37,628 bases of DNA from an uncultured Pirellulales bacterium (GCA_964432925.1 CAYSPM010000001.1:32813-70440), one strand, 5' to 3'; counted from the stretch's first letter, positions 4,939 to 36,375 are shown. Translations and numbers: made by a program. Notes: generated by a model from the sequence alone, not told the origin.

Positions 4939-4987
4939 ATTCGGTTTTTTCGTTGGTTTTGTCCGTGCTTTTGAGAATGTGTGCCTT

Positions 4988-6133: not shown

Positions 6134-6135
6134 GA

Positions 6136-7046: not shown

Positions 7047-7115
7047 TAAGTTGCGAGTGATACTATGCCTTGCACCACATTGGAAGTCTAATTCTTGGTC
7101 ATGTAGGATTAACAG

Positions 7116-9077
7116 ATGCAGAGTTTAGACATAGGGATAAGCGGCCTTAACGCAGCCCAAGAGGCTATCAGCGTAATCGGTAATAATATATCTAATGCTG
7201 CTACCGAAGGCTACCATCGCCAAAGAGTGAATTTGGTTCCTGCTTACTCTTCGCAGGTTGGTTCCGTTCTGCAAGGAGGGGGTGTTGACATAGCTGGCGT
7301 TACCAGAATGATCGACGGGCTTTTGGAGCAGGAGATTCTCCGACAACAGTCTTCGTTGGGGGACGTATCGCAAGAACTCGCAACGCTGCAGACTGTTGAG
7401 AATGCGTTTGGAGAGCTTTCGGCTGGCAGTAGTCTGAGCGTGGCGCTCGACGGGTTTTTTAGTGCGTTGCAGGATCTGTGCACTCATCCGTCAGAGATTA
7501 TTTGGCAAAGCCAGGCCATTGTTGTCGGCCAGAGTCTGTCCGGCCAGTTTAGAACGCTGGGCGAATTTCTGTATGAGCTCGAAAACCAGATTCTTTCGGA
7601 AGCAGAAGACACCGTCGACAGGATTAATACTCTGGTAACTCAAATTGCCGAACTCAACGCCAACATAGAAAGGACAGAAATAGGTGGAGCGCAAGCAAAC
7701 AACCTGTGTGACCAAAGGGATCAGCGCATAAAAGATCTCTCCGAACTCGTATCTGTGCAAACACAAAGCCGGGAGTATAGTGTTGTTGATGTCAGTGTTG
7801 CTGGGGCACCTGTTGTTGTGGGTGCATCTACGATTGAGTTGGAGGTTAGTATTAAAGACGACAATCAAATTGGAATTTCAGCAGCAGGTGCACACGATTA
7901 CATTACAGGTGTCCAGGGTGGAAAACTAGGCGGCTTATTATCACTGAGAAATGAGATTGTAGTTGGTATTCACGATGACCTTGATGCTTTGGCGCGCTCA
8001 ATAATACAACAGATAAATCAGTATCATGTTCGGGGTGTCGGGTCGCAAGGATCGTTTAAAGAACTGACCGGATGGAGGATGACAAGTGAAGATCTGGCTG
8101 ATTTCAGTCAGGACATAACCGACGGTAAAATATATATCAGGGTCATCAACTCAAGCACCGGAGAAATAACGCGCCATGAGATTGACGTAGATGTTTCAGC
8201 GGATTCGCTCTCGACAATAGCAGCTAATATCTCAGCAATCACCGGTTTGAATGCCTCGGTACTCTCATCAAGGCTTAGTATCCAAGCTGAGGCGAACTAC
8301 GAGTTTGATTTTCTTCCGGCTGTTTTACCTGAGCCTACAGCCACCAATCTGACTGCGGCATTGCCCCCAGCGATAAGTGTGTCGGGAATTTATACAGGAG
8401 ATGAAAATCAGACTTTCACCTTTACAGCAACAGGAACCGGTTCTATAGGCAATGGTGAATTGCGTCTCGAAGTGAGAAATGGTGATGATGAGGTTGTTAC
8501 TACCCTTAATATCGGTTCTGGTTATGCAGCCAGTGACAAGCTTGATATAGGTAATGGCATCAAGATATCCCTTACCACGGGTGACCTGAACCCTGGCGAC
8601 ACCTTTGAGGCGGATGCCTTAGTAAGTTCTGATACTTCGGGGGCAATAGCCGCACTTGGCATCAATACCTTCTTTTCCGGTTCTTCTGCCAGAGATATGG
8701 CGATTTGTTCCAGCATAGTTGATTCACCAGGTCGGATCGCAACAGCTTTAGGGCCGGACCGGACCGACAATGCCAACGCTTTGCGGCTATTAGGCGTGAA
8801 GGATGAGGCAGTAGATAGCTTAAACGCAATGACACCGGCAGAGTTCTATCGTCGGCTGGTCACCGATATCGGCCAGCAAGTCTTTGTCAAACAAATGCGC
8901 TCTGATAATATTCGAACAATGGTTCAGGACCTTAGCAGTAGGCAAAGTGAGATGAGCGGCGTCAACATCAATGATGAAGCGGCTCAATTATTGATCTTTG
9001 AGCAGATGTTTCAGGCGGTGGCCAAATATCTCAGTATGGTCCAGGATTCGATAGAAACTATGATGGAAATGCTATGA
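7116..9077 (+). CDS. flgK: Hook-associated protein 1 FlgK
   Basis: 653 aa. N-terminus MQSLDIGISGLNAAQEAISVIGNNISNAATEGYHRQRV and C-terminus SGVNINDEAAQLLIFEQMFQAVAKYL are canonical FlgK. Confidence 0.95.
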   Translation: MQSLDIGISGLNAAQEAISVIGNNISNAATEGYHRQRVNLVPAYSSQVGSVLQGGGVDIAGVTRMIDGLLEQEILRQQSSLGDVSQELATLQTVENAFGELSAGSSLSVALDGFFSALQDLCTHPSEIIWQSQAIVVGQSLSGQFRTLGEFLYELENQILSEAEDTVDRINTLVTQIAELNANIERTEIGGAQANNLCDQRDQRIKDLSELVSVQTQSREYSVVDVSVAGAPVVVGASTIELEVSIKDDNQIGISAAGAHDYITGVQGGKLGGLLSLRNEIVVGIHDDLDALARSIIQQINQYHVRGVGSQGSFKELTGWRMTSEDLADFSQDITDGKIYIRVINSSTGEITRHEIDVDVSADSLSTIAANISAITGLNASVLSSRLSIQAEANYEFDFLPAVLPEPTATNLTAALPPAISVSGIYTGDENQTFTFTATGTGSIGNGELRLEVRNGDDEVVTTLNIGSGYAASDKLDIGNGIKISLTTGDLNPGDTFEADALVSSDTSGAIAALGINTFFSGSSARDMAICSSIVDSPGRIATALGPDRTDNANALRLLGVKDEAVDSLNAMTPAEFYRRLVTDIGQQVFVKQMRSDNIRTMVQDLSSRQSEMSGVNINDEAAQLLIFEQMFQAVAKYLSMVQDSIETMMEML

Positions 9078-9219: not shown

Positions 9220-10407
9220 ATGAGCGGTTCGCTTAGCAATATTTACGACACTGTCAGCTATGCCCTATATCTGAACTCCAAGGCCTTGGCTCGTTTGCAG
9301 GAACAAGCCTCTACTGGCTCAAGGATAAATAGAATTTCTGATGACCCGTATGATGCTTGCCGCGTTTTGGGGCTTGAGTCTCATCAGAGATCCCTGGAAA
9401 CTTACATGAAGACGCTATCGGAGTTGGTCGGCAAGCTGGAGATTTCATCGTCAGTCCTTGGGGATATGACCTCTGCACTTGCTAATATTAAAGCCGATTT
9501 AGCTCAAGTTGTTAGTGGAACCTATGGCCAAGAAGGTCGGCTGAGGATCGCGGATGGAATAAATGACACGTTGGAGCAGATGGTTTCGCTGGCTAATACA
9601 GAGCACTCTGATCAATATCTATTTGCAGGATCAGATACGACTTCGGCACCCTACGTCGTGGAGCGCAATAGTGGAAAGATTGTACGTGTGACTTATCAAG
9701 GCAGCAACGAAAAGCCTAACATAGAAGTGGCACCCGGCCTTCAAGCCTCACCGTTCTACGTCGGCGATGAAATCTTTCGTTCAGATAGCCGCAGCGACAC
9801 GGTTTTTCTGGGAGATACCGGCGCCAAGGCCGGCACCGGCACATCCAGTGTTTGCGGTGACGTTTGGCTAACGGTTACTCACGACGGCAGCAACTACCAA
9901 CTGTCCATCGATGATGGAGCCAGCTACGTAACAGTGCCGTCAGGAGGTGACACCAACCAGGCTGTGACGGATTCACGGACCGGACGCGTCCTTTATGTTG
10001 ACACTACCCAGATTAATAACACCGGAACTGAGCTGGTGCGTGTACCGGGGACATACGATGTATTTGCCGCATTAATAAGCATTCGCGACATGTTAAGAAA
10101 CGAAAGGGGCCTTTCAGACACTCAATTGAGCGAGGTCCAGGATAGTTGCCTCACTTCGCTCGAAGAGATAAGAAACCTGCTGGTGCAGGCTGGAATCTCT
10201 GTTGGGTTGAAAATGGGCTTCCTAAGTGATCTAAAAGGCAATCTCGAAAATATTAGCTATAACGCGGAAGAAGAAGCGACACAACTTCAAGAAGCTGATA
10301 TCGCGCAAGTAGCCATAGACCTTTCGCGCCGGCAAATTCTATACGAGATGTCGTTATCTGTAGCTGGCAAACTCATGTCACTGTCGCTGCTGGACTTCAT
10401 AACGTAG
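9220..10407 (+). CDS. flgL: Hook-associated protein 3 FlgL (hook-filament junction)
   Basis: 395 aa. LARLQEQASTGSRINRISDDPYDA is the flagellin-N/FlgL signature, and the C-terminus DIAQVAIDLSRRQILYEMSLSVAGKLMSLSLLDFI fits. Position after flgK. Confidence 0.85.
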   Translation: MSGSLSNIYDTVSYALYLNSKALARLQEQASTGSRINRISDDPYDACRVLGLESHQRSLETYMKTLSELVGKLEISSSVLGDMTSALANIKADLAQVVSGTYGQEGRLRIADGINDTLEQMVSLANTEHSDQYLFAGSDTTSAPYVVERNSGKIVRVTYQGSNEKPNIEVAPGLQASPFYVGDEIFRSDSRSDTVFLGDTGAKAGTGTSSVCGDVWLTVTHDGSNYQLSIDDGASYVTVPSGGDTNQAVTDSRTGRVLYVDTTQINNTGTELVRVPGTYDVFAALISIRDMLRNERGLSDTQLSEVQDSCLTSLEEIRNLLVQAGISVGLKMGFLSDLKGNLENISYNAEEEATQLQEADIAQVAIDLSRRQILYEMSLSVAGKLMSLSLLDFIT

Positions 10408-10601: not shown

Positions 10602-12116
10602 ATGATGGCACAGGCAGATTCGAGTCGTTATCAAGAAGCAGTGGGATTAGCTGAAACCAGCAAATATCAGGAAGCACTTGTCCGCATTGAGGAATATCTT
10701 CGAGTTTCGCCTAATGATGTAGAGGCCTTGAATGATGCGGGAGCAATTTTACACTGTTTAGGACGGTCCGACGAGGCCATCGAGCATCTGGTCCGCGCAA
10801 GAAAGCTACAGCCTGATTCTGCCGAGATAGTTTGGAACCTGGCAGAGGCATACCTTGGTGCTGGTAGAGCAGATCAAATCGGCCAGCTTTATAACGACAT
10901 GGAACGAATGGGCATACTGAATGCTGATGTGCTCAACAGGACAGCGAACTTATTTTTGAACCAATCAAACAAAGCCGACGCGCTCGAAATGTTATTGCGT
11001 TCGCTGAAGCTATCACCAGATCAGCAGGTACTTGAGCCTATGCTCGAGGTGATTCGAAGCAAAAGACCCAAGATCGGCTTTTTCCGCGCAGCTAACGCGG
11101 AGAATAGATCACTTACAGATATTTGCGCCTTTGCACAAGAACGCTTCAGTGTACAGCATTTCCAGGGTCAAAGCGTGGACCAGATGTATGAATTTATGAA
11201 AACCAGTGACATCTGCTGGTTTGAAGGCTGTAGCGACATTGCCTCTGAGGCCTCGAAATTACCAAAGATCACCAAAAACATTGTCAAGCTACATGGACCT
11301 GAGCTACAAGATGGATGGCCGAGGCAGGTTCAATGGGAGAACATTGATATTCTCATCACAATTGGTAATTCCCAGTTCGAAGAGATTTTGTTAGAGCAGG
11401 TGCCTGACATTAAGACTCGAACAAGGCTCGTTACGATTCCTAAAGGCGTTGATCTTGAAAAGTTTAAGTTTGTTGGCAGAAAGCGCGGCAAGAATCTCGC
11501 CTGCATTGGTCATTTGAATATGCAGAAAAATCCCATGTTTCTGCTGCAGTGTATGCAGAAGCTGCACTACATCGACCCGGAGTACAGGCTGTTCTTCGCA
11601 GGAGCTTTTCAGAGCCCGATGCTTCAGCGGTATATAATGCACATAGTACAGGCGCTCGAACTGTCAAATATTGTGCTTTTTGATGGCTGGCAAGAGGATG
11701 TAAATTGCTGGCTGCAAGATAAACACTTCGTTGCTTCAGCCGGTATCGGGCAAAGTCAAGAGATGGGATTATTGCAAGGTATGGCTTGTGGCCTGAAGCC
11801 GGTCATCCACAATTTTCCAGGCGCTAGTGAAATGTTTCCGCCTGATTTACTGTTCAATATCTCTGAGCAATTTTGTGAGCGAATCCTTGCGGACAGATAT
11901 GAGCCCGAGAGCTATCGTAGATTCGCCGAAGAAAGGTATCCATTGAGAAATCAGTTAGAAAAAATCAACGGCATCTTCATCCAGCTCGAACGCGAAATAG
12001 ATACTCGGCAGGCTAAAAGTCCATCTAGTATCGAGTTAGAGAACAGACCAGTTGAAAACGCAACATTACCTAACGAGTTCCATTCTTTAGAGTTTAATAA
12101 TAATAGAATCTCGTGA
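10602..12116 (+). CDS. TPR-repeat + GT-B (GT1/GT4-like) glycosyltransferase; FlmG-like architecture
   Basis: 504 aa. The N-terminal ~150 aa are TPR-like (YQEALVRIEEYLRVSPNDVEALNDAGAIL..., AEIVWNLAEAYLGAGR). The C-terminal part carries the GT-B nucleotide-sugar motif region (SQEMGLLQGMACGLKPVIHNFPGASEMF). Confidence 0.7.
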   Translation: MMAQADSSRYQEAVGLAETSKYQEALVRIEEYLRVSPNDVEALNDAGAILHCLGRSDEAIEHLVRARKLQPDSAEIVWNLAEAYLGAGRADQIGQLYNDMERMGILNADVLNRTANLFLNQSNKADALEMLLRSLKLSPDQQVLEPMLEVIRSKRPKIGFFRAANAENRSLTDICAFAQERFSVQHFQGQSVDQMYEFMKTSDICWFEGCSDIASEASKLPKITKNIVKLHGPELQDGWPRQVQWENIDILITIGNSQFEEILLEQVPDIKTRTRLVTIPKGVDLEKFKFVGRKRGKNLACIGHLNMQKNPMFLLQCMQKLHYIDPEYRLFFAGAFQSPMLQRYIMHIVQALELSNIVLFDGWQEDVNCWLQDKHFVASAGIGQSQEMGLLQGMACGLKPVIHNFPGASEMFPPDLLFNISEQFCERILADRYEPESYRRFAEERYPLRNQLEKINGIFIQLEREIDTRQAKSPSSIELENRPVENATLPNEFHSLEFNNNRIS

Positions 12117-13786
12117 CTCTCTGTTTTCAAGTAATGTCAGATACGATTGAAATGATCAAAAGCTACAGAACTGATTCCGGATTGGATAAGCTGCGTGAGC
12201 AAAGCAGAATAAAGGCCGACCCACTTGTTAGTGTACTAATCCCGACCTTTAATCGACCCCAATATCTCTCTATAGCTCTTGCCAGTGTTTTGCGACAAAG
12301 TTACAGAAATCTTGAGATCATCGTCGTCAATGACGGTGGTACTGATGTCAGTGATTTAATCAATTCTTTTGATGACCAAAGGCTGATGTTTATCAATAGA
12401 AAGGAAAATCACGGAAAGGCATTTTCTCTGAATGAGGCTCTGGACAGAGCAAACGGCAAGTACGTTGCCTACCTTGATGATGATGACTTGTATTACCCTA
12501 ATCATATAGAGTTGTTGGTAAACGCTCTGGAAAATGAAACAGACTGCCAGGTTGCATATACCGACTTATATAAGAGTTACTGCAATGTGCTGCCGGATGG
12601 CAGCCGACAGATTTTGAGCAAAGTGGTTGAAATCAGCCGGGATTTCGACCGTTTCTTCATGCTATATTACAATCACGTATTACACGTATGCCTAATGCAC
12701 CGTCGAGACCTGATTGAAAAGACCGGCTATTATAATGAAAAGCTAAACATCCTCATCGACTGGGACATGACGCGTCGTCTCGCCTTTTTCTCGGATTTCC
12801 ATCACGTACCCAAAGTCACTGGTGAGTTTTACAGTCCTTGTGGTGAATGCGACAGAATATCTGTCCAGAGGCGCAAAGATAAAAGTGAATACCTCCGGAA
12901 CGTTCTTGCGATACGAACGACACGACCTGCAAAGCCTTGGCCGAAGGTCAAAGACTTGTCTGTAATTTTCGTTGCTGATAAGCTTGATAAGCAAGCTGGC
13001 AAAACCATTGGCTACATTTGGCGCTACACGTTCTATCCGTACAAGCTTTATTTGCCACTGCCTCAATCTGATCTTACCAGGCTGAAAACAGATATGCCTA
13101 ACGTTGTGCTTGTGCCTGTCTCGGCCTCTTCTTCTATTACCGAGCGAATAGATGCAGCTTTACGAAGTGCCGATGGAGACTGCATTGCTATCGTTCCCAG
13201 CGGTTTTCCAATAAGCGATATGTGGGTGGAAGAATCTGTATATGTTCTGATCAATAGTTCAGCAGGCCACGTTGCTTTTGAACTCAGAGGCACAACAGAT
13301 GTCCTCTGGGCAATAGTCATTAGAAAAGAGGACTTGTACAATGCTCGCAGGAGTTTTCCCAGCTTGTCTATAAGGCAATCCTTACAGGCATCTGGTATTG
13401 TGCAGAGAAAATTAGGTATTGAGGATACGCCTTTTAAGTTTGACGGTTTGCTTCGAGAAGCGATCTCCTCGCAGAACGATGGAAACTGGAGACAAGCAGG
13501 CAGGATGTTCGAATATATCGCGGAGCACCACAAGAATGAGTTGTGGATGAGAAGCTTGGCTGCAAAGGCTGTCTTCGAGGCCGGTGACCATGCCCGCGCC
13601 GCACAGCTCATTCACGAAGTGAACCAGCAGCGTCCCACGGTAGAGACACTTTTATTGCAAGCTAAGTTTTGCAGAGAGAATAAGAGCTTTTATCGTGCTA
13701 TCCAGTTACTCGAAAAGGCACAGCAAATATTGACTAATGAAATAGATTATTCTACAGGTTCCAAAGTCGTCAACTATACCCAGTAG
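12113..13786 (+). CDS. GT2-family (GT-A) glycosyltransferase with C-terminal TPR-like region
   Basis: VSVLIPTFNRPQYLSIALASVLRQSYRNLEIIVVNDGGTD plus the DxD motif YLDDDDLYYPNH. The C-terminal helical repeats are TPR-like. GTG 12113 overlaps the upstream stop; ATG 12134 is the alternative start. Confidence 0.8.
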   Translation: MTLCFQVMSDTIEMIKSYRTDSGLDKLREQSRIKADPLVSVLIPTFNRPQYLSIALASVLRQSYRNLEIIVVNDGGTDVSDLINSFDDQRLMFINRKENHGKAFSLNEALDRANGKYVAYLDDDDLYYPNHIELLVNALENETDCQVAYTDLYKSYCNVLPDGSRQILSKVVEISRDFDRFFMLYYNHVLHVCLMHRRDLIEKTGYYNEKLNILIDWDMTRRLAFFSDFHHVPKVTGEFYSPCGECDRISVQRRKDKSEYLRNVLAIRTTRPAKPWPKVKDLSVIFVADKLDKQAGKTIGYIWRYTFYPYKLYLPLPQSDLTRLKTDMPNVVLVPVSASSSITERIDAALRSADGDCIAIVPSGFPISDMWVEESVYVLINSSAGHVAFELRGTTDVLWAIVIRKEDLYNARRSFPSLSIRQSLQASGIVQRKLGIEDTPFKFDGLLREAISSQNDGNWRQAGRMFEYIAEHHKNELWMRSLAAKAVFEAGDHARAAQLIHEVNQQRPTVETLLLQAKFCRENKSFYRAIQLLEKAQQILTNEIDYSTGSKVVNYTQ

Positions 13787-13821: not shown

Positions 13822-14469
13822 ATGGATAAAACGCAAACAAACGATGTTGAACAGCACAACCAGACCCAACATTATGAGGTCTTGCAGGAACTCGGTGACT
13901 GCTACACTTCTATTGGCAACTATACCCAAGCGCAACGTTGCTATGAAAAGGCTGCGTCTATAGGACCTGATGAGCCAGGTCCTTACATTGGGCTTGGAGT
14001 CGCTGCTCTACAGAAGGATCAGCTCGATGATGCTGAAATAGCCTTTAGGGTTGCTTGTCGGCTGGCTCCTGATTGTGCCAAGGCATACACCGGCTTGGCA
14101 ATGGTTGCTCAACAAAGACAAGATTACCACAATGCCTTTGATCTTTATATGAAATCCCTTGAGCTTGACGGTGACAATATAACGGCGCTCTTAGGCCTTT
14201 TTCAGACAAGTTGTAAAATGGGATCGTTCGCCAAAGTCACTTACTATCTGGAAGTCTACCTGAGAGTGCACCAAAGTGACATCTCTGTTATGTTTTCTCT
14301 GGCAGCGCTATACATGAGGGATGGTCGACTTGAACAGGCCAAAGGGATGCTCTTAGATTTATTGGCTTTGGATCCGAATAATAAGGATGCTGCTAATTTA
14401 CTTGAGGAAGTGGAACATAATATAGCGCAGACGAACAAGCAGGAAATCAAGCCGAATGAAAAAGGATAA
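13822..14469 (+). CDS. TPR-repeat protein
   Basis: 215 aa made of consecutive 34-residue TPR-like units (LGDCYTSIGNYTQAQRCYEKAASIGPDEP; AEIAFRVACRLAPDCAKAY; AFDLYMKSLELDGDN; AKGMLLDLLALDPNNKDA). Confidence 0.8.
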   Translation: MDKTQTNDVEQHNQTQHYEVLQELGDCYTSIGNYTQAQRCYEKAASIGPDEPGPYIGLGVAALQKDQLDDAEIAFRVACRLAPDCAKAYTGLAMVAQQRQDYHNAFDLYMKSLELDGDNITALLGLFQTSCKMGSFAKVTYYLEVYLRVHQSDISVMFSLAALYMRDGRLEQAKGMLLDLLALDPNNKDAANLLEEVEHNIAQTNKQEIKPNEKG

Positions 14470-14794
14470 CACTGAAATTGTTTCCTCTAATCAGGCAAAT
14501 CTCTTGGACGATTTGCAGGCACTGCTTAAAAAGCAAATAGCATCAGCTCACAACGGTTGCATTAGTGATGTTGAATCGATGGGCAGACAAGCTGATGTTC
14601 TTGTCCGAAAAATTGCTCAGATGGGTTTTTTGAATCAACCTGATTTTGAGGCTCAGCGTAAGCAACTTCAAAAGCTCTACAACGATTTATGTCTTGCCAT
14701 TACTGCTCAAAAAGACCAGACAGAACAATCACTGAACCGTATCCGCAGAGGTAGGAAGACCATAGCGACTTATCGTAAAAATATTGCATTATAG
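14456..14794 (+). CDS. Hypothetical 112-aa helical/coiled-coil protein
   Basis: The ORF overlaps the upstream TPR gene by 14 nt (coupled). It is charged and helical, and I recognise no family motif in it. Confidence 0.45.
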   Translation: MKKDNTEIVSSNQANLLDDLQALLKKQIASAHNGCISDVESMGRQADVLVRKIAQMGFLNQPDFEAQRKQLQKLYNDLCLAITAQKDQTEQSLNRIRRGRKTIATYRKNIAL

Positions 14795-14824: not shown

Positions 14825-17800
14825 ATGACAAACTATGACTTAAGCAAGCGCTCTACCGTTAGCGGCGACACCACTTCATCAGCGCCAACGTTCCTTAGCC
14901 ACAAGAGCCCCATACCTCAGACTGGAGAGATTGTTGTGGACGGTCTTAGATTCGCAAATGTTAGGAGAACCAAGCATAAGAACAACTCGGTGGGGTTTAA
15001 TGACAAGTACATTATAAAGATTGAACATTACAAGCACCCGCTGAAACTTCGGTCGCTTTTGGAGGAGATTGAGATAATAAGGTATCTGAACTGGAAAGAG
15101 TGTGTTTCGTGCCCCATACTAGTTTCCGAAGGGAGGCTGAGAACCGGAGAGCGGTATTTCATACAGGAGAGAATTGACAGCCAGCGGGGATTTAATACAG
15201 CCGATATGGTGCTTTCCATACTTGAGCAGAAAAGTCTCGGGGTTTGCCAGGGTGACTTAAAAATAAAGAACTTTATATTCGATGCTGATTCGGTCTGCCA
15301 CATAATTGACTACGACCAGGCAATATATGATAAGCGATTTGTGCAAATGGGCAATACCGAGTATTTCGAATGGATTGCTCAGTACATTGTAAACAGATGG
15401 AGAAAATACGGCGTTACTGATTTTTACAACTCGCATGGATTGAACAGAGACGAGATTTTTAGTCTGTTCAAAAAGGGTGCATTTAATTTGGCTACAGTCA
15501 CGATATTCAAAGATCAAATCACCACAGATTCTGACATTGGCATCTATCACAACTTGAACACCGATAAGATTTATATAGAAGGTGCCCGCGATTTGAATCC
15601 CAGACTTGGCACTTTGGACACTGTTGAATTCAAGAAGGGAGAAATGGTTCTGGATGTTGGGTGTAACATGGGGCTGCTTGGGCATTACCTGCACGATAGA
15701 GGATGCGTAGTAACAGGCATTGATATGGACAGAAAGATTATAATTGGTGCCAAGATGGTTGCCAATATTCTTAACAAGAACATCCAATTTAAATGGCTGG
15801 ATATTGACGAAGCGAGAATAGAACAAGAGTATGACACTATCTGTCTTTTCTCTGTCATTCATCACGTAAAGAACTTTAAGCGGGTAACTGAGAATATAGC
15901 GCAAAGGTGCAACAGGATAATACTGGAATGTGGGTTGAAAGAACATGGTAGTAAGCCTACTAAGGGTGGGTGGACAGCTACAAGCGGGTGGGACTTTAAT
16001 TCTATTGGAGAGCTGGTCCACTATCTTGAGACAGCGTTTAGAGGATTTAGATTCCATGGCTGTCACGGCAGTGTGGACAGGAATAGACAGATAATAACTT
16101 TAGCAAAGAAACCCACAGCGACAACCATGCAAGTTCAGAGAGAACCTCCACGTAGCATTCAGGAAGGTGAATTTGCTGAACAGCAATTAAGCAACGAATC
16201 AAAATATTTAGTCTCAACTATTGTTTCGACGTACAACTCGGGACGCTTTATTCGTGGATGTCTGGAAGATTTAGAAAACCAAACCATCGCTGACAGACTT
16301 GAAATAATCATCGTTAATAGCGGATCAGAAGAAAATGAGGAGACGATCGTTCATGAATTTCAGCAGAAGTATGACAATATAAAATATATCAGAACCGATG
16401 AGCGAGAGACAATATACCGGGCGTGGAACCGAGCTATTAAAATCGCATCAGGTAAATATATTACCAATGCTAATACCGATGACCGTCACAGTCCGGAAAT
16501 GTTTGAAAAACTGGCTACCGCGCTGGATTTGAATGATGATATTGCAGTTGTCTATTCCCAGTTCTATATTACCAGGGTAGAGAATCAAACCTGGCGAAAT
16601 AAAACAGTTGAAAAAATAGCACAATGGGTGCAGCCATATTCGAGAGAACAATTACTAAAAATGTACTTCCTTGGACCACAGCCTATGTGGCGAAAGTCCC
16701 TTCACGACGAATATGGTTATTTCGATGAGACGTTCAAGATATGTGGCGATTATGAATTTTTTCTTCGCGTCTCGCAGACCCATGATTTTTTGTTAATCCC
16801 TGAACCGTTAGGTCTTTATCTGCTTTCACCTAATAGTCTGGGGCGTACTGCTGGGACTAGAGAGCAGGAGGACCAGAAGATATGGGAACTTTATAGGAAT
16901 AATACAGATAGAATAATCCGCGGACCTTTTGTGCCAATTGAAAGCTGCGAAGTTTCCCTAAGTGAGTCAGTTGGTAAGAAGCTCTGCTATAGTGCGAATG
17001 GGATTGCCGCAGAGCATACAGCAACAGTGGGCTCTAACAGTTCTGCTTTGGATTACTTTCTCAAAGCCAAAGACGATTTTAACAAGGGTAATTTTATATC
17101 TGCCACAAAATATATAAATCAATATAAAGCACTGATGGACTATTCTAAGCTACAAAGGTCATTAAATACGAATACAGTAAGAGAAGATAACAACATAGAT
17201 ATATCAGTAATAATAGTAACAAATAATAGAGCAGAGGAACTTCAAGATTGCCTTAAGTCTCTGTTAGAACAAGAAGCTGATTGCAATTTTGAGGTCATTG
17301 TCGTTGATAATGGGTGCGTTAATATCGAAAGTTTCATGCAATGTGTGGATCAATATATCAAGTGCCCCATTAATCTTAACCCATCTGAAGGAAGGAACAT
17401 AGGCGTACGTTTTGCAAGGGGCAATATCATCGTGTTCTTAGATGACGATGCGGTTGTTAGGTCTGATTACGTATCATCAATAAAGTGTGCATTTAACAAA
17501 TACGATATTTTTGGTCTGAGAGGCAGGACTTATCCTAAGAGCAGTCCCGTGGCTAATAATCATGTAAACATCTGTGATCTTGGAGATAAGCCATTTCCTT
17601 CATACTGTAATCAAGAGGGGAACTCCGCTTGGCTCCGTGATATATATCTTTCGGTGGATGGAATGGATCCATTGCTCTTTGGACACGAGGGAAGCGATCT
17701 TACTTACAGGATCATTCAAAAATATAAAAAAACGAATAAGGTTATCTACTGGCCCGCTGCTGTAATATATCACGATTATGGTGTGTCTGAAAAACTAAGA

Positions 17801-20269
17801 AAGAAAAGGATATTGTATCAGCTAAGTGCAAACTATCTTAAGTATAAACACGGCACCGACATATTCGTTAACTGGATGGAGATTAAAAAATATCCTATAG
17901 ACTTAAAGAAAAATTACAAGCTGCCAGAGAAAGTCTGCTCAGGCAGAGTTTCTAATCCATCTTCTGTAATATCTACAGAGCGCTTGCATCCAAGAGTTTC
18001 GATAGTGATATCTTGCTACAATTGTGCAAAATTTCTGCCGGAATGCCTCGAGAGCATCATAAATCAAACTATGCAAGAGTGGGAGCTGTTATTAATCGAC
18101 GACGGCAGCACAGACGGCACAAGAAGTATTATCGAAAAATATGCTCAGATGGATGAAAGAATCAGGCCTTTCTACTCACAGGAAAATAAAGGACCTTATT
18201 TTAGAAGGAACTTTGGAATTGAACATGCCAACAGCGATTTCATTGTTGTACAAGACGCCGATGACATTATGTGTCCGAGCAAACTCCAAATGCTTTATAA
18301 TGAAATAACCAAGGATGACCAGATCGGAATTGTGGGTTCGTTTTATTACAAATTTCTTGAGGAATTTGAGGGTTTCGAATACAGCGAAAAGTGTGAACTA
18401 GCACTTTCTCATGAAGAAATTATGCGAACTGAGCGCTCAAGATGGGACTTCTGTTGGCATGGTTCAGCTATTATCCGTAAAAGCTTGTTTAACGCGATTG
18501 GATTATACGATGAAAATCCGTTTGGCTCAGATTCAGTCTGGCTGGCTAAGACTGCTGAGTATGCGTATTACGATAGCAATGTGAAATTCAAGAACATTCC
18601 TGAGTTTTTAACCTTACGGAGGGTACATGCCGACTCACAAACTGGAATACTTCCGACCTTTGACCCTCGCAGCAGAAGAGTCAAATACGTTTCCTATTGG
18701 CAAGATAAGATTTATAAGATAAGGGAAAGAATCCAAAATAATTCAGGCGTGGATATTGCGGCCGAGCTTAGAAACTGCCAATGTTCGGATTTCACCACCA
18801 AATATGGCCACCTCTTCGATCAATGGGAGAGCGAGCCGCTCGATAAAAAAACTCTGCTTGGATTAGTTAATAGAGCTGTGGTTTTATTTCAAAGCGGTGC
18901 GTATGTAACATGTATTAGTGTGCTTAACGGCCTGGAAAGAGTTGACCGTGAGCTTGCAAATAAACTTAAAAACTTTGATTTATTAAAAGCTAAAGCTTAC
19001 TTTGCCGTTGGCAAAAAACAGCGGTGCCTTAGATACCTTGAAAAAGAAATCCAGAACCACGACAACCCGGCTGCCAGGGAATTTCTGGCTAATCAGTTTC
19101 AAAACGAACATGATACTTTTGTGCCCAGCCAAAGCATAGAAGATCATCTGCAGGTAAGTACTGAACCGGCTGGTCAAAGAGGAGAGCACACCGCACAGAG
19201 CGAACTTGTTACTCCTGACGATAGCACCACTGTGGAGGCTGGAAGGCTTAAAGACAATCTAAATGACTCTCTTCATACGAAGACAGAACCGCTTGTTTCG
19301 ATAGTAATCCCAGCCTACAATGCAAGCCGGTATATCCAAAAGGCTGTCGAAAGCGTGTTGGCTCAAACCTACAGGAATTTCGAGATCATTATTGTTGACG
19401 ATGGTTCCACAGACGCTACCAAAGACAAGGTGCTTAGTTACAACGATTCCAGAATCAACTACCTTTATAAGGACCACTCAGGCCTTGCAAGCGCGTGCAA
19501 TACAGCCATAAGAAAAATTAAGGGATCGTTCTGGATCAGGCTCAATGCCGAGGACATGATCACGCCGGACTTTATTTCCAGGCATCTGCGTGAGTTCGAG
19601 CGGTACCCTGAAGCCGACTTAGTTTACTGTGACGATTGTCTGATTGATGAAGATGGTAACTCGATCCGGATAATTGACAGGCCTGAATACACTAATCGTA
19701 CAGGTTTGATACGGGACCTTTTTCATCACGGTTTCCCAACCGTTCCGTTCGGAACGTGCATTAGAATCGATGTCTTCGATAAAATCGGCATGTTTGACGA
19801 GAGTCTGATTATTGCTGAGAACTACGATATGATGCGAAGATTTGCAAAACATGGTTTAACATCGCATCATTTAAAAGACGCATTATATTTACGCCGAATG
19901 ACATCAGATATTATTTTGAGAGACAATAGCGCCGAAAAGGCCAATTGTTATTTTGACGTGATAAAGCGATTTACCGATATGTTTAGCTGCGAAGAACTTT
20001 TCCCGGACGTTAGTTGGGATGCAATTGCCGCTGAGAAAAGAAAATTGCATGCAAGATGCTTGGCCGCCATTGTTTTTGTTGAACTCGGGCGTGCTTATAC
20101 ACAGTCTAATTCACCTAACTACGCTGGTGTTGCCTTTGATCGGGCCTGTTTTGAGATGCGTGATGCGCTCGAAATGGACCCTGAAAATACACAGATTCAC
20201 CAGTTGCTGCAGCAATGCGAGTTCGCTCGCACCGAATCCAAGAAGTTGCTGTGTGTGTCCGCTCGTTAA
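14825..20269 (+). CDS. 1814-aa multidomain enzyme: protein-kinase-like domain + class I SAM methyltransferase + four GT2 glycosyltransferase domains + TPR-like linkers
   Basis: Uninterrupted 5.4-kb ORF in AT-rich DNA.
- Kinase-like motifs: YIIKIE (Lys), LLEEIE (Glu), GDLKIKNFIF (D-L-K-x-x-N catalytic loop, nt 15251-15271), HIIDYD (nt ~15303-15320).
- Methyltransferase motif I: VLDVGCNMGLLG (nt ~15647).
- GT2 starts: VSTIVSTYNSGRF (~16205), ISVIIVTNNRAEEL (~17195, DxD FLDDDA), VSIVISCYNCAKFL (~17993, DxD QDADD), VSIVIPAYNASRYI (~19292). Confidence 0.8.
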   Translation: MTNYDLSKRSTVSGDTTSSAPTFLSHKSPIPQTGEIVVDGLRFANVRRTKHKNNSVGFNDKYIIKIEHYKHPLKLRSLLEEIEIIRYLNWKECVSCPILVSEGRLRTGERYFIQERIDSQRGFNTADMVLSILEQKSLGVCQGDLKIKNFIFDADSVCHIIDYDQAIYDKRFVQMGNTEYFEWIAQYIVNRWRKYGVTDFYNSHGLNRDEIFSLFKKGAFNLATVTIFKDQITTDSDIGIYHNLNTDKIYIEGARDLNPRLGTLDTVEFKKGEMVLDVGCNMGLLGHYLHDRGCVVTGIDMDRKIIIGAKMVANILNKNIQFKWLDIDEARIEQEYDTICLFSVIHHVKNFKRVTENIAQRCNRIILECGLKEHGSKPTKGGWTATSGWDFNSIGELVHYLETAFRGFRFHGCHGSVDRNRQIITLAKKPTATTMQVQREPPRSIQEGEFAEQQLSNESKYLVSTIVSTYNSGRFIRGCLEDLENQTIADRLEIIIVNSGSEENEETIVHEFQQKYDNIKYIRTDERETIYRAWNRAIKIASGKYITNANTDDRHSPEMFEKLATALDLNDDIAVVYSQFYITRVENQTWRNKTVEKIAQWVQPYSREQLLKMYFLGPQPMWRKSLHDEYGYFDETFKICGDYEFFLRVSQTHDFLLIPEPLGLYLLSPNSLGRTAGTREQEDQKIWELYRNNTDRIIRGPFVPIESCEVSLSESVGKKLCYSANGIAAEHTATVGSNSSALDYFLKAKDDFNKGNFISATKYINQYKALMDYSKLQRSLNTNTVREDNNIDISVIIVTNNRAEELQDCLKSLLEQEADCNFEVIVVDNGCVNIESFMQCVDQYIKCPINLNPSEGRNIGVRFARGNIIVFLDDDAVVRSDYVSSIKCAFNKYDIFGLRGRTYPKSSPVANNHVNICDLGDKPFPSYCNQEGNSAWLRDIYLSVDGMDPLLFGHEGSDLTYRIIQKYKKTNKVIYWPAAVIYHDYGVSEKLRKKRILYQLSANYLKYKHGTDIFVNWMEIKKYPIDLKKNYKLPEKVCSGRVSNPSSVISTERLHPRVSIVISCYNCAKFLPECLESIINQTMQEWELLLIDDGSTDGTRSIIEKYAQMDERIRPFYSQENKGPYFRRNFGIEHANSDFIVVQDADDIMCPSKLQMLYNEITKDDQIGIVGSFYYKFLEEFEGFEYSEKCELALSHEEIMRTERSRWDFCWHGSAIIRKSLFNAIGLYDENPFGSDSVWLAKTAEYAYYDSNVKFKNIPEFLTLRRVHADSQTGILPTFDPRSRRVKYVSYWQDKIYKIRERIQNNSGVDIAAELRNCQCSDFTTKYGHLFDQWESEPLDKKTLLGLVNRAVVLFQSGAYVTCISVLNGLERVDRELANKLKNFDLLKAKAYFAVGKKQRCLRYLEKEIQNHDNPAAREFLANQFQNEHDTFVPSQSIEDHLQVSTEPAGQRGEHTAQSELVTPDDSTTVEAGRLKDNLNDSLHTKTEPLVSIVIPAYNASRYIQKAVESVLAQTYRNFEIIIVDDGSTDATKDKVLSYNDSRINYLYKDHSGLASACNTAIRKIKGSFWIRLNAEDMITPDFISRHLREFERYPEADLVYCDDCLIDEDGNSIRIIDRPEYTNRTGLIRDLFHHGFPTVPFGTCIRIDVFDKIGMFDESLIIAENYDMMRRFAKHGLTSHHLKDALYLRRMTSDIILRDNSAEKANCYFDVIKRFTDMFSCEELFPDVSWDAIAAEKRKLHARCLAAIVFVELGRAYTQSNSPNYAGVAFDRACFEMRDALEMDPENTQIHQLLQQCEFARTESKKLLCVSAR

Positions 20270-20438: not shown

Positions 20439-22808
20439 ATGTCTACTTTACAATTTCCAGGTCTTTTTACCGGCATTGACACGGCTAAGATCATTGAGCA
20501 ACTAATGGCTGTTGAGCGTCGTACGCTCAATATGTACCAGGGCCGCAAGAGCCTCTGGGAAGAGAGAAAAGATGCCCTCAGCGATCTCGAGAGCAAGCTC
20601 GATGCCTTAAGAAGCACAATCAGCGCCCTTTCCGATGCCAACGAGCTACGTGCCTTCACAACCGCTACCAGTGATGAAGATATATTAACAGCCGAAGCGT
20701 CCTATAACGCCTTTGAAGGCAACCATACCGTCCAGATCAATCGATTGGCTACTGCCGAGCGATGGGTGCATACAGATGGACTCGAATACGCCGAAGACTA
20801 TGTCGGTGAAGGAACCTTCATTTATTCTTACAATCACAAAGAGACAGTAATCACCACTACCTCTACCACTACACTCGAAGAGCTGGTGGGGCTGATTAAC
20901 AATGAAGCGAACAATCCCGGCGTTACAGCCAGTCTGCTGCACTTTAACGATATGTATCATCTGGTCCTGAACGGCAATGACGCCGGCACCGATTTTGAAA
21001 TCTCGGTAAACGCATCCAACACGGAGGTCTGGCAGGCGGATTCTGAACTTACCGTCGCCAGCGACAACGCTACTTTAAGCACTAAGATTATTGATTTGGA
21101 CCAATTTGACGATAGTCTGGGTTCACTCGTTGGAGACGAACGTATTCGTATTACCGGCAACAAGCACGATGGCACTGCCGTCGATGTGTATATGGATGTT
21201 ACCGGCAATACGAAGCTTTTTCATATTATTGCCGAGATTAACGACGCTTTCGGAGATACTGCTACGGCAGTTCTGGAAAACGGCAAGATAGTTTTAACAG
21301 ATCATGAGTCCGGCACAAGTCAGATGACACTTACACTGGCCTATGATCCGGGCACCGGACAAACGGATATGACTTTACCGACTATTAGTCAATCAACACG
21401 GGGTGGCTCTGTCACAGCGGACCTGACTGGTTTTGCAGAAGCAAACTTTAGCGAAACCCAATCAGCTCAGGATAGCGAAATAAGGGTTGACGGCTTCCCA
21501 ATCCCACAAGCGGGAATTGCCGAGGTGCAAACGCTGGAAGCCACCACAAATCCATCTGGTGGTACCTTTACCTTAACTTATGACGGACAAACGACTGATC
21601 CGATCAATCACAATGCTAAAACTTCCGATATTGAAAACGCACTTGAAGCATTGTCAAATGTAAATCCCGGCGATATAACGGTGAGTGGCAAGAAGTTGAG
21701 CGAGAATGGTACTACGATATTTACATTCCTCGATACAGTCGGTGATGTTCCTATGATTTCGATTAATTCCGGCAACCTGACTCCCAGTGATCCTTTAAAT
21801 TACGTATTTGAGGAACAGACAAAGGGCGACAACTATGGCTGGATCAAAAGAAGCTCTAATACTGTAGACGATGTCATTCACGGTGTAACGCTGCATTTGC
21901 ACGACACCACCGACTCCAACGGCGAGGAAATAACCCTGACCAGAGATATAGAGTCGGTAAAGGAAAAACTGAATTCCATGGTTAAAGCCTATAATAGTGC
22001 TATAACCTATATCAAGGAAAAGACCGGCTACAACGATGTCCTTAAGACAGCAGGTATCCTTATGGGCGATTATGTTGTCTCCATGATCCATAATTTGCTG
22101 CGCACACCACTAATAGCCCAAACTAGTGGTTTCATCGAGGATGTAGATCCTTTGTTGATGCCCGCTCAAATCGGTCTTGAGCTCGACGAAGACGGCATGT
22201 TGAGCTTGGATACCAATGCCTTCGATGAAGCCATTGCCGATAACTATATGGGCGTTTTGGCCGTAATCGGCGCTGATAAAACCGGTAGCTCCAATAGCAA
22301 CACTATTGAATTCTACGGTGCCAGCAGTAAGTATACAACCGCCGGCGGCTACGACGTTGAAGTAACCATTAGTGGCGGTGCAATCACAAGCGCCAAAATT
22401 AAACTCTCAAGCGAGTCCACATATAGAGACGCAACTTACAGCGGCAACATCGTTACTGGTGATAGCTCCTTTGATGACAACGGTGATCCTGTATACCCGG
22501 AGAACAGTCTTCAGCTGAGTGTGGACCTGAGCCAGAATGGGACATTCACGGCTACAGTCAGAGTCAAGCAGGGCTTTACCGGTGCAATGGAAGACGTGCT
22601 TGACAGAATGCTCAAGGTAACCACCGGCTCAATACAGATCGACCAGGAACACGTCGGCGATACCATAAAGGAATTGCAGGAGCGAATTGAAATTGAAGAG
22701 GAGCGCCTCGAAGATAAGGAGGCCAGACTAATCATCCGCTTTGCCCGTCTTGAGAGTACGTTGACCTTACTTCAAAACCAGTTGGCTGCCTTAGGCTTAA
22801 GCGCATAA
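20439..22808 (+). CDS. fliD: Flagellar filament cap protein FliD (HAP2), unusually long
   Basis: 789 aa. The N-terminus MSTLQFPGLFTGIDTAKIIEQLMAVERRTLNMYQ and the central SEIRVDGFPI ... SSNTVDDVIHGVTLHL ... VKEKLNSMVKAYNSAITYIKEKT are FliD hallmarks. C-terminal coiled coil. AAGGTGG RBS. Confidence 0.92.
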   Translation: MSTLQFPGLFTGIDTAKIIEQLMAVERRTLNMYQGRKSLWEERKDALSDLESKLDALRSTISALSDANELRAFTTATSDEDILTAEASYNAFEGNHTVQINRLATAERWVHTDGLEYAEDYVGEGTFIYSYNHKETVITTTSTTTLEELVGLINNEANNPGVTASLLHFNDMYHLVLNGNDAGTDFEISVNASNTEVWQADSELTVASDNATLSTKIIDLDQFDDSLGSLVGDERIRITGNKHDGTAVDVYMDVTGNTKLFHIIAEINDAFGDTATAVLENGKIVLTDHESGTSQMTLTLAYDPGTGQTDMTLPTISQSTRGGSVTADLTGFAEANFSETQSAQDSEIRVDGFPIPQAGIAEVQTLEATTNPSGGTFTLTYDGQTTDPINHNAKTSDIENALEALSNVNPGDITVSGKKLSENGTTIFTFLDTVGDVPMISINSGNLTPSDPLNYVFEEQTKGDNYGWIKRSSNTVDDVIHGVTLHLHDTTDSNGEEITLTRDIESVKEKLNSMVKAYNSAITYIKEKTGYNDVLKTAGILMGDYVVSMIHNLLRTPLIAQTSGFIEDVDPLLMPAQIGLELDEDGMLSLDTNAFDEAIADNYMGVLAVIGADKTGSSNSNTIEFYGASSKYTTAGGYDVEVTISGGAITSAKIKLSSESTYRDATYSGNIVTGDSSFDDNGDPVYPENSLQLSVDLSQNGTFTATVRVKQGFTGAMEDVLDRMLKVTTGSIQIDQEHVGDTIKELQERIEIEEERLEDKEARLIIRFARLESTLTLLQNQLAALGLSA

Positions 22809-26624: not shown

Positions 26625-27398
26625 TCAAATGTTGTTCTTGAGAACGGCAATCAAGATTTGAGATTGTTTTGGAACAGGGCTATCTTGACCGGCCCATTGC
26701 CCTCCCGGTCCGGCCCCCCACCACAGAACGGACCATTCATGTCTGTTGCCGAGCACATCGTACTGACCCTGACGAGCTGAGTCGAATGACAATATCTGCT
26801 GCAGGAGGTCAGCTACCACGCGTGCTCGCTCAGCGGACAGTAGCCACTGTTTTTTTTCTGTCGCTTCATCACCAGCCAAGCCGAGTACGTACAGAGTACC
26901 AGGCTCGGAGTCATGGCTTTGTTGCAGGTCCAGGCAGAAATCAGCCAAAAATCGCTTTGCCGATTCATTCAAAGTTGCTTGGCCAGAGGCAAACTGAATG
27001 TCGGTTACCGCAAAGTTTGTGCTCGCCGCCACGATTTGCGATGGCATTGTCGCCATTGATTGCCTTATCCGCTCGAAAGCTCGACGAAGTTTCTCTCTTT
27101 GTTCATCTATACCTCTGGTCTCTGATATATTGTTAGGATCGCTTGTTGAGTATTTGATTTTCATTTCACCCATATCTGTTCGCATTCTTTTGCCAAGTAA
27201 CGGCCCAAGTCCGCAGTATTTTACAGACTGCCAGAATGAGTCGCGACCTTTGTTAAAAAGCTCGGGGTCCTGAACCTCAGCAAGGCTCAGCAGCATCACA
27301 AAGAATGTCAGCAGCAATGTCACCATATCAGAGAATGTGACTATATATGCTGGTACCTTAGATGACCCCTCGTCTTGTGCGCGGGAGCTGGTTTTCAA
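26625..27398 (-). CDS. motB: MotB-family stator protein, distal paralog (OmpA-like C-terminus)
   Basis: 257 aa. The TM/plug region PAYIVTFSDMVTLLLTFFVMLLSL carries the conserved Asp. The C-terminal WLLSAERARVVADLL matches the OmpA-like LSxxRAxxV. Apparent TTG start overlaps the upstream stop (TTGA). Confidence 0.8.
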   Translation of the reverse strand: MKTSSRAQDEGSSKVPAYIVTFSDMVTLLLTFFVMLLSLAEVQDPELFNKGRDSFWQSVKYCGLGPLLGKRMRTDMGEMKIKYSTSDPNNISETRGIDEQREKLRRAFERIRQSMATMPSQIVAASTNFAVTDIQFASGQATLNESAKRFLADFCLDLQQSHDSEPGTLYVLGLAGDEATEKKQWLLSAERARVVADLLQQILSFDSARQGQYDVLGNRHEWSVLWWGAGPGGQWAGQDSPVPKQSQILIAVLKNNI

Positions 27399-28096
27399 CG
27401 GTAAATGCTCCGTTCTAATATCACGATTTCGAGTCTGCGACTGTCTTTTCGATTCGTGGCATACCCTATGTTGTCCAATCCGTTTTTTTCTGGGATTGTA
27501 CTTCTTGTAGAGATGCCGAACCGCTTTTTGTCGAGCCCATGTTTATTCGTTAAGTATTCTGTTATGGCCCATGTACGTTTCAGCCCAACATCTTGGTTGC
27601 CCGTGCTGTCATGCTCGTTCTCACTTATTACGATCCTATTAGGGATCGCCTTGAGCAACTCAGCAATATCCGACAAAGTCCTCCGCCCTTCAGCCGAGAT
27701 TAGGATTCCCTTACCCCAGAAAATTCTACTTGACGGGGTCACGAAAACCTTTTTATTCTGAAATTCTAAAAACTCCGTCTCCTCTTTCGGATTAGCTTCG
27801 ATATTCCCCTCCAAAGTTGGTTTCTCACTGCCCTTGTCAATTTCTTTGTTATACTTTATCTGTTTAACTTCGGTAAAAGCCTCCCTGTCCTTAGTGAGCG
27901 ACATGCCCACTGAGGGCAACGCCTCAGCCAACGATGTCTCCATCTTACGGAAAACCTTGTCGTCAAATGAGGAGAAGGTCAAAAGCAGAACGAAGAACGT
28001 CAGAAGCAACGTCATACAATCGCTGAAAGTCACCATCCATTCAGGTGCGCCGGCAGAATCCTCATCCGCTTGTACCTTTTTACTTGTGCCAGCCAT
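27395..28096 (-). CDS. motB: MotB-family stator protein, motA-proximal paralog
   Basis: 233 aa. APEWMVTFSDCMTLLLTFFVLLLTF carries the conserved Asp. The C-terminus has ITEYLTNKHGLDKKRF and NRKDSRRLEIVI (an NRRVEI-like OmpA end). The ATG overlaps the motA stop (TAATG). Confidence 0.8.
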   Translation of the reverse strand: MAGTSKKVQADEDSAGAPEWMVTFSDCMTLLLTFFVLLLTFSSFDDKVFRKMETSLAEALPSVGMSLTKDREAFTEVKQIKYNKEIDKGSEKPTLEGNIEANPKEETEFLEFQNKKVFVTPSSRIFWGKGILISAEGRRTLSDIAELLKAIPNRIVISENEHDSTGNQDVGLKRTWAITEYLTNKHGLDKKRFGISTRSTIPEKNGLDNIGYATNRKDSRRLEIVILERSIYR

Positions 28097-36343: not shown

Positions 36344-36375
36344 TATTTCTGATATGTTAGGGTGAGGTTTGCGCT

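Follow-up and report, generated by a model that had tools for sequence, protein, structure and literature searches.

The O9a O-antigen of Escherichia coli is ended by WbdD, which places a methyl-phosphate on the terminal mannose and whose catalytic residues include N356 and D369, the Asp of the DFG motif (PMC3482155). ORF6 of Klebsiella pneumoniae O7, which has been tested biochemically, is a methyltransferase-kinase terminator fused to two family 2 glycosyltransferase (GT2) modules; it adds phosphate and then methyl to terminal rhamnose and has the order methyltransferase, AmiN-like kinase, carbohydrate-binding module, coiled coil, and two GT2 modules, the kinase being described as unlike that of WbdD in both sequence and structure (PMC11231755). 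In K. pneumoniae O12 a terminator and a glycosyltransferase (GT) are also found in one polypeptide, WbbB, and WbdD, ORF6, and WbbB all act on undecaprenyl-linked polymers (PMC11231755). Here we describe a gene next to fliD in a 37,628-nucleotide stretch of DNA from an uncultured Pirellulales bacterium (GCA_964432925.1 CAYSPM010000001.1:32813-70440; hereafter, the window). It encodes a single polypeptide of 1814 amino acids (aa), the giant protein, in which a kinase-fold domain and a class I S-adenosylmethionine (SAM)-dependent methyltransferase are followed by four divergent, intact-looking inverting GT-A/GT2 modules, one of them with an atypical motif, and which is almost certainly a multi-module glycan assembly enzyme.

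Among flagellar glycosylation proteins, those of the FlmG, Maf, and GmaR types have a single GT and transfer one sugar (pseudaminic acid, N-acetylglucosamine), and to our knowledge none of them carries a kinase-methyltransferase cassette or multiple GT2 modules. What they share with the giant protein is that they are cytoplasmic glycosylation machinery encoded within flagellar clusters. The flagellin glycosyltransferase FlmG combines N-terminal tetratricopeptide repeats (TPR) with a C-terminal GT-B domain (PMC7591256).

Comparison with WbdD revealed both likeness and difference. Each protein pairs a eukaryotic-type kinase fold with a class I SAM methyltransferase in glycan assembly, and WbdD is the closest solved kinase structure, with the same D-x4-N-x12-D spacing and a short activation segment. 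Unlike the giant protein, however, WbdD, which is the chain terminator of K. pneumoniae O3 as well, is not fused to glycosyltransferases; it has a long coiled-coil ruler and a membrane-binding C-terminus, whereas the giant protein has neither, and WbdD works with an ABC transporter on undecaprenyl-linked polymannan, whereas the giant gene lies in a flagellar cluster. The giant protein is not a member of the WbdD family, since it has no detectable kinase sequence homology, a reversed domain order, no coiled coil, and no transporter nearby. With O7 ORF6 and O12 WbbB it shares the combination of a chain terminator and GT2-type polymerising modules in one polypeptide, and by analogy it may work like the terminator-polymerase fusions of ABC-transporter-dependent O-antigen synthesis. 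Relative to ORF6, which we compared by its published description only, it has a WbdD-like kinase placed first and four GT2 modules, lacks the carbohydrate-binding module and the coiled coil, and is not set among transporter genes.

As terminator-GT2 fusions have been characterised in O7 ORF6 and O12 WbbB, the design principle was already known; what is new is that the domain order is reversed, that a coiled-coil ruler is missing, that there are four GT2 modules, and that the setting is flagellar. An earlier reading of this DNA from its sequence alone (the sequence-only reading) had not recognised such a fusion as a described flagellar factor, and had asked whether the architecture might already be characterised in a non-flagellar pathway. 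Our literature searches found no description of the giant family and no experimental study of any member, and those on flagellin glycosylation in Planctomycetes, a methyl-phosphate flagellin glycan, and giant flagellar glycosyltransferases returned nothing relevant; terminator-GT fusions are known outside flagella.

Results

The reading frame of the giant protein contains zero internal stops. Several independent metagenome assemblies (JGI 3300031620, 3300031257, and 3300031654; Logan SRR9700529) together contain at least 13 contigs that encode exactly the same amino acid sequence. This identity excludes an assembly join, so that the single uninterrupted open reading frame (ORF) described by the sequence-only reading, which had named a joining of separate genes as the artefact to look for, is real. 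In a Pfam scan of the protein, class I methyltransferase families and four separate PF00535 stretches scored above their cut-offs. Named GT2 enzymes were matched only below threshold in the NCBIfam scan, so that none of the modules counts as an equivalog of any known enzyme. Pfam showed no membrane-anchor or transmembrane family, membrane helices not having been predicted directly, and scans for promoters and terminators gave matches at the level expected by chance.

At the N-terminus, a kinase-like module had been proposed from an intact GDLKIKN catalytic loop (aa 143-149) and an IIDYD motif (IIDYDQ, aa 160-165). Sequence searches of this region were weak. Pfam gave sub-threshold matches only, to APH (E 0.031, 14.5 bits vs a cut-off of 23.2) and to Pkinase (E 0.28, 11.0 bits vs a gathering score of 31.7), both of which fell over the catalytic loop, and no NCBIfam model matched; some homologs carry a precomputed PF01636 match. 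Searches of PDB sequences with the kinase domain, as a single sequence and as a profile, produced marginal kinase matches (E 0.013-0.04), and nearly all matches of the profile were kinases aligned at the catalytic loop/DFG region, which supports a kinase fold qualitatively without assigning the domain to a family. We modeled aa 1-450 with AlphaFold2 from an alignment of 20 homologous segments (alignment A1) and obtained a predicted local distance difference test score (pLDDT) of 85.7 and a predicted template modeling score (pTM) of 0.83, with aa 1-32 and 431-450 disordered; the kinase part alone (aa 30-258) gave a pLDDT of 82.2. When the aa 1-450 model was compared with the PDB by Foldseek, only methyltransferases were matched (E 1e-9). 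The kinase-only model gave 40 matches at E<=0.001, all of them kinase-fold proteins, and ranks 1-5 among 350,542 chains were WbdD structures (4azw, 4azt, 4ax8, 4uw0, and 4azs; E 2e-5 to 3.5e-5); below these came eukaryotic-type protein kinases (VRK, PRPF4B, CK1, and TTBK) and the kinase domain of a lanthipeptide synthetase; APH(2'') followed at rank 46, its E-value slightly over 0.001.

The catalytic set of the fold is present as K65 (in YIIK), E81, D144-L-K-x-x-N149, and D162 (in IIDYD, the DFG equivalent); K65, E81, D144, N149, and D162 are kept in 70-77 of the 84 family representatives and are invariant or nearly so in the close alignments A1 and A2. A pseudokinase was considered and rejected because of this conservation. 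The D-x4-N and N-x12-D spacings equal those of WbdD D351, N356, and D369 (PMC3482155). The domain is short (~215 aa), with only ~80 residues past the DFG-equivalent Asp, no APE motif, and no full-length activation segment. A short C-lobe, also seen in WbdD, would fit a non-protein substrate, and we consider a sugar the likely substrate. We concluded that the domain belongs to the kinase-fold superfamily by its structure and catalytic residues, not by Pfam thresholds, and in this the sequence-only reading was upheld.

The methyltransferase, also noticed earlier from its motif VLDVGCNMG (motif I, aa 275-283), was confirmed by Pfam, with Methyltransf_12, 23, 25, 31, and 11 over their cut-offs at aa ~264-367. 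Further acidic residues are D300 and D326, and D277, G279, G283, and D300 are invariant in alignment A1. In 80 of the 84 representatives whose kinase-like domain is full-length, a methyltransferase follows directly downstream; the remaining four are proteins of 220-268 aa that end where the kinase domain ends. Kinase and methyltransferase are thus an obligate, mobile two-domain cassette; the confident model of aa 1-450 indicates that they pack as one unit, and the adjacency and the rigid packing together suggest consecutive steps on one substrate.

The cassette (aa ~32-430, ~400 aa) recurs in homologs of the giant protein at 45-77% identity, as the N-terminal, central, or C-terminal part of proteins that differ in the rest of their make-up, including proteins of ~1015 aa with TPR and GT41 (OGT-like) parts. 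When 1.84 billion representative proteins were searched exhaustively with a profile, 161 members fell within E<=0.001, of which 124 reached E<=1e-10. The family is small and sharply set apart from ordinary kinases, and neither Pfam nor NCBIfam has a model for its kinase-like domain. The majority of members stand alone (380-540 aa), and about one-tenth are fused into proteins of ~1000 aa or larger. Species-representative genomes with the cassette belong to Planctomycetota, Bacteriovoracaceae, Nitrospirales, Bacillota, Anaerolineales, several Proteobacteria, and Desulfobaculum. All contexts that we examined were glycan-related, being either fusions to GT2 or GT41 or neighboring GT2, GT4, or Wzx genes. 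The Desulfobaculum cassette lies in a cluster with Wzx-type flippase, GT4, and GT2 genes. In Thiorhodococcus drewsii AZ1 (L023 370-7083 and 9116-12892) the cassette is part of a 1258-aa protein with Capsule_synth (PF05159), and its gene adjoins those of a TPR-FkbM methyltransferase and of a 2237-aa protein rich in TPRs, in which Pfam matched GT41 in six stretches. T. drewsii, a cultured purple sulfur bacterium, is possibly a tractable organism for study of the cassette.

Downstream of the cassette, PF00535 matched the giant protein in four separate stretches (E 2.4e-117 overall, 389 bits in total vs a cut-off of 23.3), the modules starting near aa 462, 793, 1058, and 1491. The four GT2 modules of the sequence-only reading were thereby established, although the opening signature that it had assigned to all of them is approximate (VSTIVSTYN in module 1, ISVIIVTNN in module 2). 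Cut out and compared pairwise, the modules are 23-28% identical, and BLAST of the whole protein against itself showed no internal repeats, so that recent internal duplication, which had been posed as the alternative to distinct clades, was rejected; the modules belong to distinct and old lineages. Each one alone matched solved GT2 structures (E 2e-8 to 6e-28), the relatives being K4CP chondroitin polymerase, SpsA, GalT1, PglI, and GmaR. K4CP, a dual-GT2 polymerase, was the best match of three of the four modules, and the GT2 domain of GmaR, a Listeria flagellin glycosyltransferase, was a weak PDB match of modules 3 and 4. The DxD motifs already seen in modules 2 and 3 and the variant in module 4 were found as described; module 1 also has an equivalent, N-T-D-D, that had been missed and that is kept in 144-148 of 148 homologous modules. 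The DDD of module 2 is kept in 14 of 14 homologs, and the D-A-D-D of module 3, which gave the best Pfam GT2 stretch (1059-1225), in 3-4 of 4. Of the TPR-like linkers that had been proposed, linker 2 showed weak, sub-threshold TPR matches (aa 1291-1492; ANAPC3, E 0.0025, and TPR_14, E 0.08), whereas the others had no Pfam support, linker 1 matching no family above noise; none of the longer linkers matched a Pfam coiled-coil family. The C-terminal extension matched no Pfam family.

The architecture is not unique, as asked earlier, but one variant of a large family: giant multi-glycosyltransferases of 1000-3100 aa with shuffled modules are common among the Planctomycetota homologs. A core is conserved across ~90 homologs at 45-60% identity and consists of a module of the GT2_1 type followed by GT2_4 (modules 1 and 4 here) and the C-terminal extension, which ends no more than 40 residues from the C-terminus in 87 of 89 homologs. 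Elsewhere in the family there are GT9 heptosyltransferase, pyruvyl transferase, FkbM methyltransferase, sulfotransferase, radical SAM, MptE/Maf-like, and GT4 modules, and only a minority of members carry the cassette. The cassette, GT2_2, and GT2_3, which turn up in different combinations in other proteins, are variable and exchangeable add-ons, and different lineages should therefore make different flagellar glycans. With only two GT2 modules besides the cassette, the closest syntenic ortholog (1035 aa) lacks a block of linker 1, GT2_2, GT2_3, and linker 2 (aa ~700-1488). The GC content over GT2_2/GT2_3 (16900-18400) is 0.37-0.39, the lowest of the region, vs 0.46-0.49 in the flanking flagellar genes; since this dip covers the segment that the ortholog lacks, it suggests that the block was acquired by recombination. 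Such shuffling of catalytic modules at a fixed locus is reminiscent of the variety seen among O-antigen loci.

The whole window is a flagellar supercluster. On the + strand, flgF/G-type rod genes, flgA, flgH, flgI, flgN, flgK, and flgL lie to the left of an island of glycosylation genes and fliD lies to its right; on the - strand are flhB, fliR, fliQ, fliP, fliO, two motB-like genes, motA, fliJ, fliI, fliH, fliG, fliF, fliE, flgC, and flgB. Apart from five ORFs without assignment, every gene was assigned to a flagellar or a glycosyltransferase/TPR family, and no ABC transporter (Wzm/Wzt), flippase, polymerase, ligase, or initiating phosphoglycosyl transferase was found within the 37.6 kb, although a transporter could be encoded elsewhere in the genome. 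A giant glycosyltransferase gene is immediately upstream of fliD in all six Planctomycetota-type loci compared (the window, L005, L011, L032, L007, and L033), and the full order flgL, TPR-GT-B, GT2-TPR, TPR, small protein, giant GT, and fliD is present in the window, L005, L011, and L032. The giant protein of L005, the 1035-aa ortholog, consists only of cassette, GT2_1, and GT2_4 with the C-terminal extension; that of L011 (2293 aa) has the cassette in its middle, and that of L032 (Sedimentisphaerales, 2922 aa) has no kinase domain and contains methyltransferase and GT4 domains. In L007 the giant gene encodes 2539 aa and is followed directly by fliD; its counterpart in L033 is likewise followed directly by a short gene that matched FliD_N only. 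In the L032 island (4770-7977) the giant gene is also preceded by an additional gene of the UDP-GlcNAc 2-epimerase type and by a GT4-methyltransferase fusion, illustrating how island content varies from lineage to lineage.

The domains of the giant protein and the genes of the island are listed in Table 1. The likeness of the TPR/GT-B protein to FlmG is one of architecture only, their sequences not having been compared for homology. The all-TPR protein and the 112-aa protein may be chaperones that hold the glycosylation substrate.

Table 1. Domains of the giant protein and neighboring genes of the flgL-fliD island
Feature	Position	Strand	Residues or size	Remarks
Whole ORF, multi-module glycan assembly enzyme (almost certain)	14825..20269	+	1814 aa	ATG start; position includes stop codon
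Protein-kinase-fold domain	14921..15559	+	aa ~33-245	AlphaFold2, Foldseek, conserved catalytic residues
Class I SAM-dependent methyltransferase	15596..16114	+	aa ~258-430	Pfam, PDB profile, Foldseek
GT2 module 1	16202..16924	+	aa ~460-700	N-T-D-D 550-553; module type conserved family-wide
Linker 1	16925..17194	+	aa ~701-790	Partly polar/unstructured; one TPR-like helical hairpin by eye
GT2 module 2	17195..17944	+	aa ~791-1040	DDD 873-875; variable add-on, absent from closest ortholog
GT2 module 3	17987..18724	+	aa ~1055-1300	D-A-D-D 1144-1147; variable add-on
Linker 2	18725..19288	+	aa ~1301-1488	Weak TPR-like helices, then ~55-aa acidic/polar tail
GT2 module 4	19289..19984	+	aa ~1489-1720	Atypical N-A-E-D 1574-1577
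C-terminal helical extension	19985..20266	+	aa ~1721-1814 (~95 aa)	Conserved; always accompanies module 4
flgL (hook-filament junction protein)	9220..10407	+		Left border of island; NCBIfam TIGR02550, 170.9 bits vs 127.2
TPR (N-terminal) and GT-B (GT1/GT4, C-terminal) protein	10602..12116	+		FlmG architecture; candidate priming glycosyltransferase
GT2 with C-terminal TPR region	12113..13786	+		Syntenic
All-TPR protein	13822..14469	+		Like SycD/LcrH class II type III secretion chaperones (E 1e-15, below cut-off)
Helical protein	14456..14794	+	112 aa	Overlaps all-TPR gene; ortholog has weak FliT match
fliD (filament cap)	20439..22808	+		Right border of island; directly 3' of giant gene

Discussion

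We propose that the giant protein is a soluble, cytoplasmic, single-polypeptide assembly line of the flgL-fliD glycosylation island, which lengthens a glycan attached to a flagellar protein and then caps it with methyl-phosphate. Taken whole, we hold this proposal to be as easily wrong as right; a flagellar protein is fairly likely to be the target, whereas methyl-phosphate as the exact product is a tentative and somewhat doubtful assignment. The FlmG-like TPR/GT-B neighbor, and perhaps also the GT2-TPR enzyme, would start an O-linked glycan on the flagellar protein prior to export, most likely on flagellin and possibly on FliD. The GT2 modules would then lengthen the glycan from nucleotide-sugar donors, the kinase domain would phosphorylate a hydroxyl of the non-reducing terminal sugar, and the adjacent methyltransferase would methylate the terminal phosphate as WbdD does. 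Such a cap would stop elongation and fix the size of the glycan without a coiled-coil ruler. As there is no coiled coil and the gap between cassette and GT2_1 is a disordered stretch of ~30 residues (aa 431-460), size control is expected to come from the number and order of modules together with capping, not from a ruler. GT2 modules can transfer two or more sugars each or serve as polymerases, and the tetrasaccharide-scale product that had been suggested is unproven. In its boldest form the proposal holds that a carrier-free cytoplasmic line builds the oligosaccharide directly on the flagellar protein, that its methyl-phosphate cap is made by an undescribed family resembling WbdD in fold only, and that the fliD-adjacent gene is hypervariable, shuffles its modules, and diversifies the flagellar surface in Planctomycetota; all of this together is possible but on balance unlikely.

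Several observations weigh against the proposed assembly line. The giant protein runs from kinase to methyltransferase, whereas WbdD and O7 ORF6 run from methyltransferase to kinase, and no coiled coil lies between the cassette and GT2_1, a statement made without a dedicated coiled-coil predictor. The likeness of the kinase fold to WbdD is modest (TM ~0.4, query-normalised; 10-14% identity), and WbdD was absent among the 60 PDB sequence matches listed for the kinase profile out of 114 at E<=10. For the methyltransferase, WbdD was one among many methyltransferases in the PDB profile search (E ~1e-4) and was missing from the Foldseek top 50 of the aa 1-450 model; the best PDB sequence matches were phosphoethanolamine and alkaloid N-methyltransferases, and because the former are among the top matches, other methyl acceptors are possible. 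The polysaccharide-type clusters in other phyla, with a Wzx flippase or a Capsule_synth fusion, indicate that the cassette is not intrinsically flagellar, the window contains no flagellin gene, and we know of no glycan structure for any relative. Module 4 has L-N-A-E-D-M (19541-19558, aa 1573-1578) in place of the L-D-[AS]-D-D-M of 91-92 of 93 homologs, a double substitution unique among the 93 that may have weakened the module or changed its activity or donor use. Identity of the protein across assemblies rules out a sequencing error in the motif, and the module is not decaying, as it keeps the invariant last Asp (D1577) and every other conserved charged residue.

The generic class I similarity of the methyltransferase would also suit a different product, in which kinase and methyltransferase make independent decorations (an O-methyl sugar and a phospho-sugar, or a phosphocholine-like phosphorylated, N-methylated substituent) and there is no methyl-phosphate cap. 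Its top Foldseek matches are small-molecule methyltransferases, not WbdD, and the weak APH match, with PF01636 in some homologs, points in the same direction. We nevertheless regard independent decorations as rather unlikely, for the 80/84 adjacency and the rigid packing suggest consecutive steps, WbdD provides the closest solved kinase structures, and the only biochemically defined kinase-methyltransferase pairs in glycan assembly yield methyl-phosphate (PMC3482155, PMC11231755). On the same grounds, of the earlier suggestion of an assembly line that builds and decorates, we retain glycan assembly by a single polypeptide in a flagellar cluster and give up separate roles for the two cassette domains. 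The glycan could instead be a lipid-linked surface polysaccharide (O-antigen, capsule, or like an exopolysaccharide) with the cassette as terminator, the flagellar position being incidental or serving co-regulation. WbdD, ORF6, and WbbB do act on undecaprenyl-linked polymers (PMC11231755), the K4CP polymerase is the leading structural match of three of the GT2 modules, and the Desulfobaculum and Thiorhodococcus contexts are of this kind. The constant position upstream of fliD in the six loci, with the full island in four, the FlmG-like protein within the island, the lack of transporter, flippase, polymerase, ligase, and initiating transferase genes in the window, and the missing ruler and Pfam membrane families (membrane helices not predicted directly) argue the other way, and we judge a surface polysaccharide to be unlikely to about the same degree.

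A protein kinase or pseudokinase scaffold that acts on a flagellar protein or regulates the GT modules is improbable. Protein kinases do follow WbdD in the Foldseek ranking, and a D-L-K-x-x-N loop is typical of Ser/Thr kinases; however, the domain ends soon after the DFG Asp and has no APE motif or full activation segment, it is paired with a methyltransferase in nearly all representatives, and its contexts are those of glycan synthesis throughout, non-flagellar ones too. That the ORF is an assembly or annotation artefact joining separate genes could be argued from the GC dip and from the segment missing in the closest ortholog; with the same product on at least 13 contigs, a stop-free frame, and common relatives of 1000-3100 aa built from the same kinds of modules, this can practically be dismissed.

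The locus points to the giant enzyme, adjoining fliD and conserved but variable in its modules, as the core of flagellar glycosylation in Planctomycetota, and the cassette family, present in six or more phyla or classes, probably caps glycans there with a terminal phosphate-based group. If the proposed capping mechanism is true, control of chain length by a cap would reach from lipid-linked O-antigens to protein-linked flagellar glycans without a ruler or a transporter checkpoint, and the fliD-adjacent locus would diversify the flagellar surface as O-antigen loci do lipopolysaccharide. A compact, soluble, ruler-free terminator with naturally recombined GT2 modules could then be of use in glycoengineering. 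For annotation, hundreds of proteins from metagenome-assembled genomes that are labeled 'glycosyltransferase' alone gain a functional hypothesis.

Other genes of the window

At the left edge of the cluster, a 435-aa ORF (194-1501, +) matched no Pfam or NCBIfam family, with PilZ at noise level, and two ORFs beyond flgB, of 139 aa (36357-36776, -) and 127 aa (37212-37595, -), matched no Pfam family. Between flgI and flgN, a 131-aa ORF (6136-6531, +) is weakly like the N-terminal rod-binding part of FlgJ and has no muramidase domain. Between motA and fliJ lies a 239-aa ORF (28871-29590, -) of no family, whose weak matches are MgtE_N and, at E 0.002, FlbB, a protein of the spirochaete flagellar collar. 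After motA (28096-28866) there are tandem MotB-like genes (26625-27398, -, and 27395-28096, -), of which both have the MotB plug and only the first has an OmpA-like peptidoglycan-binding match.

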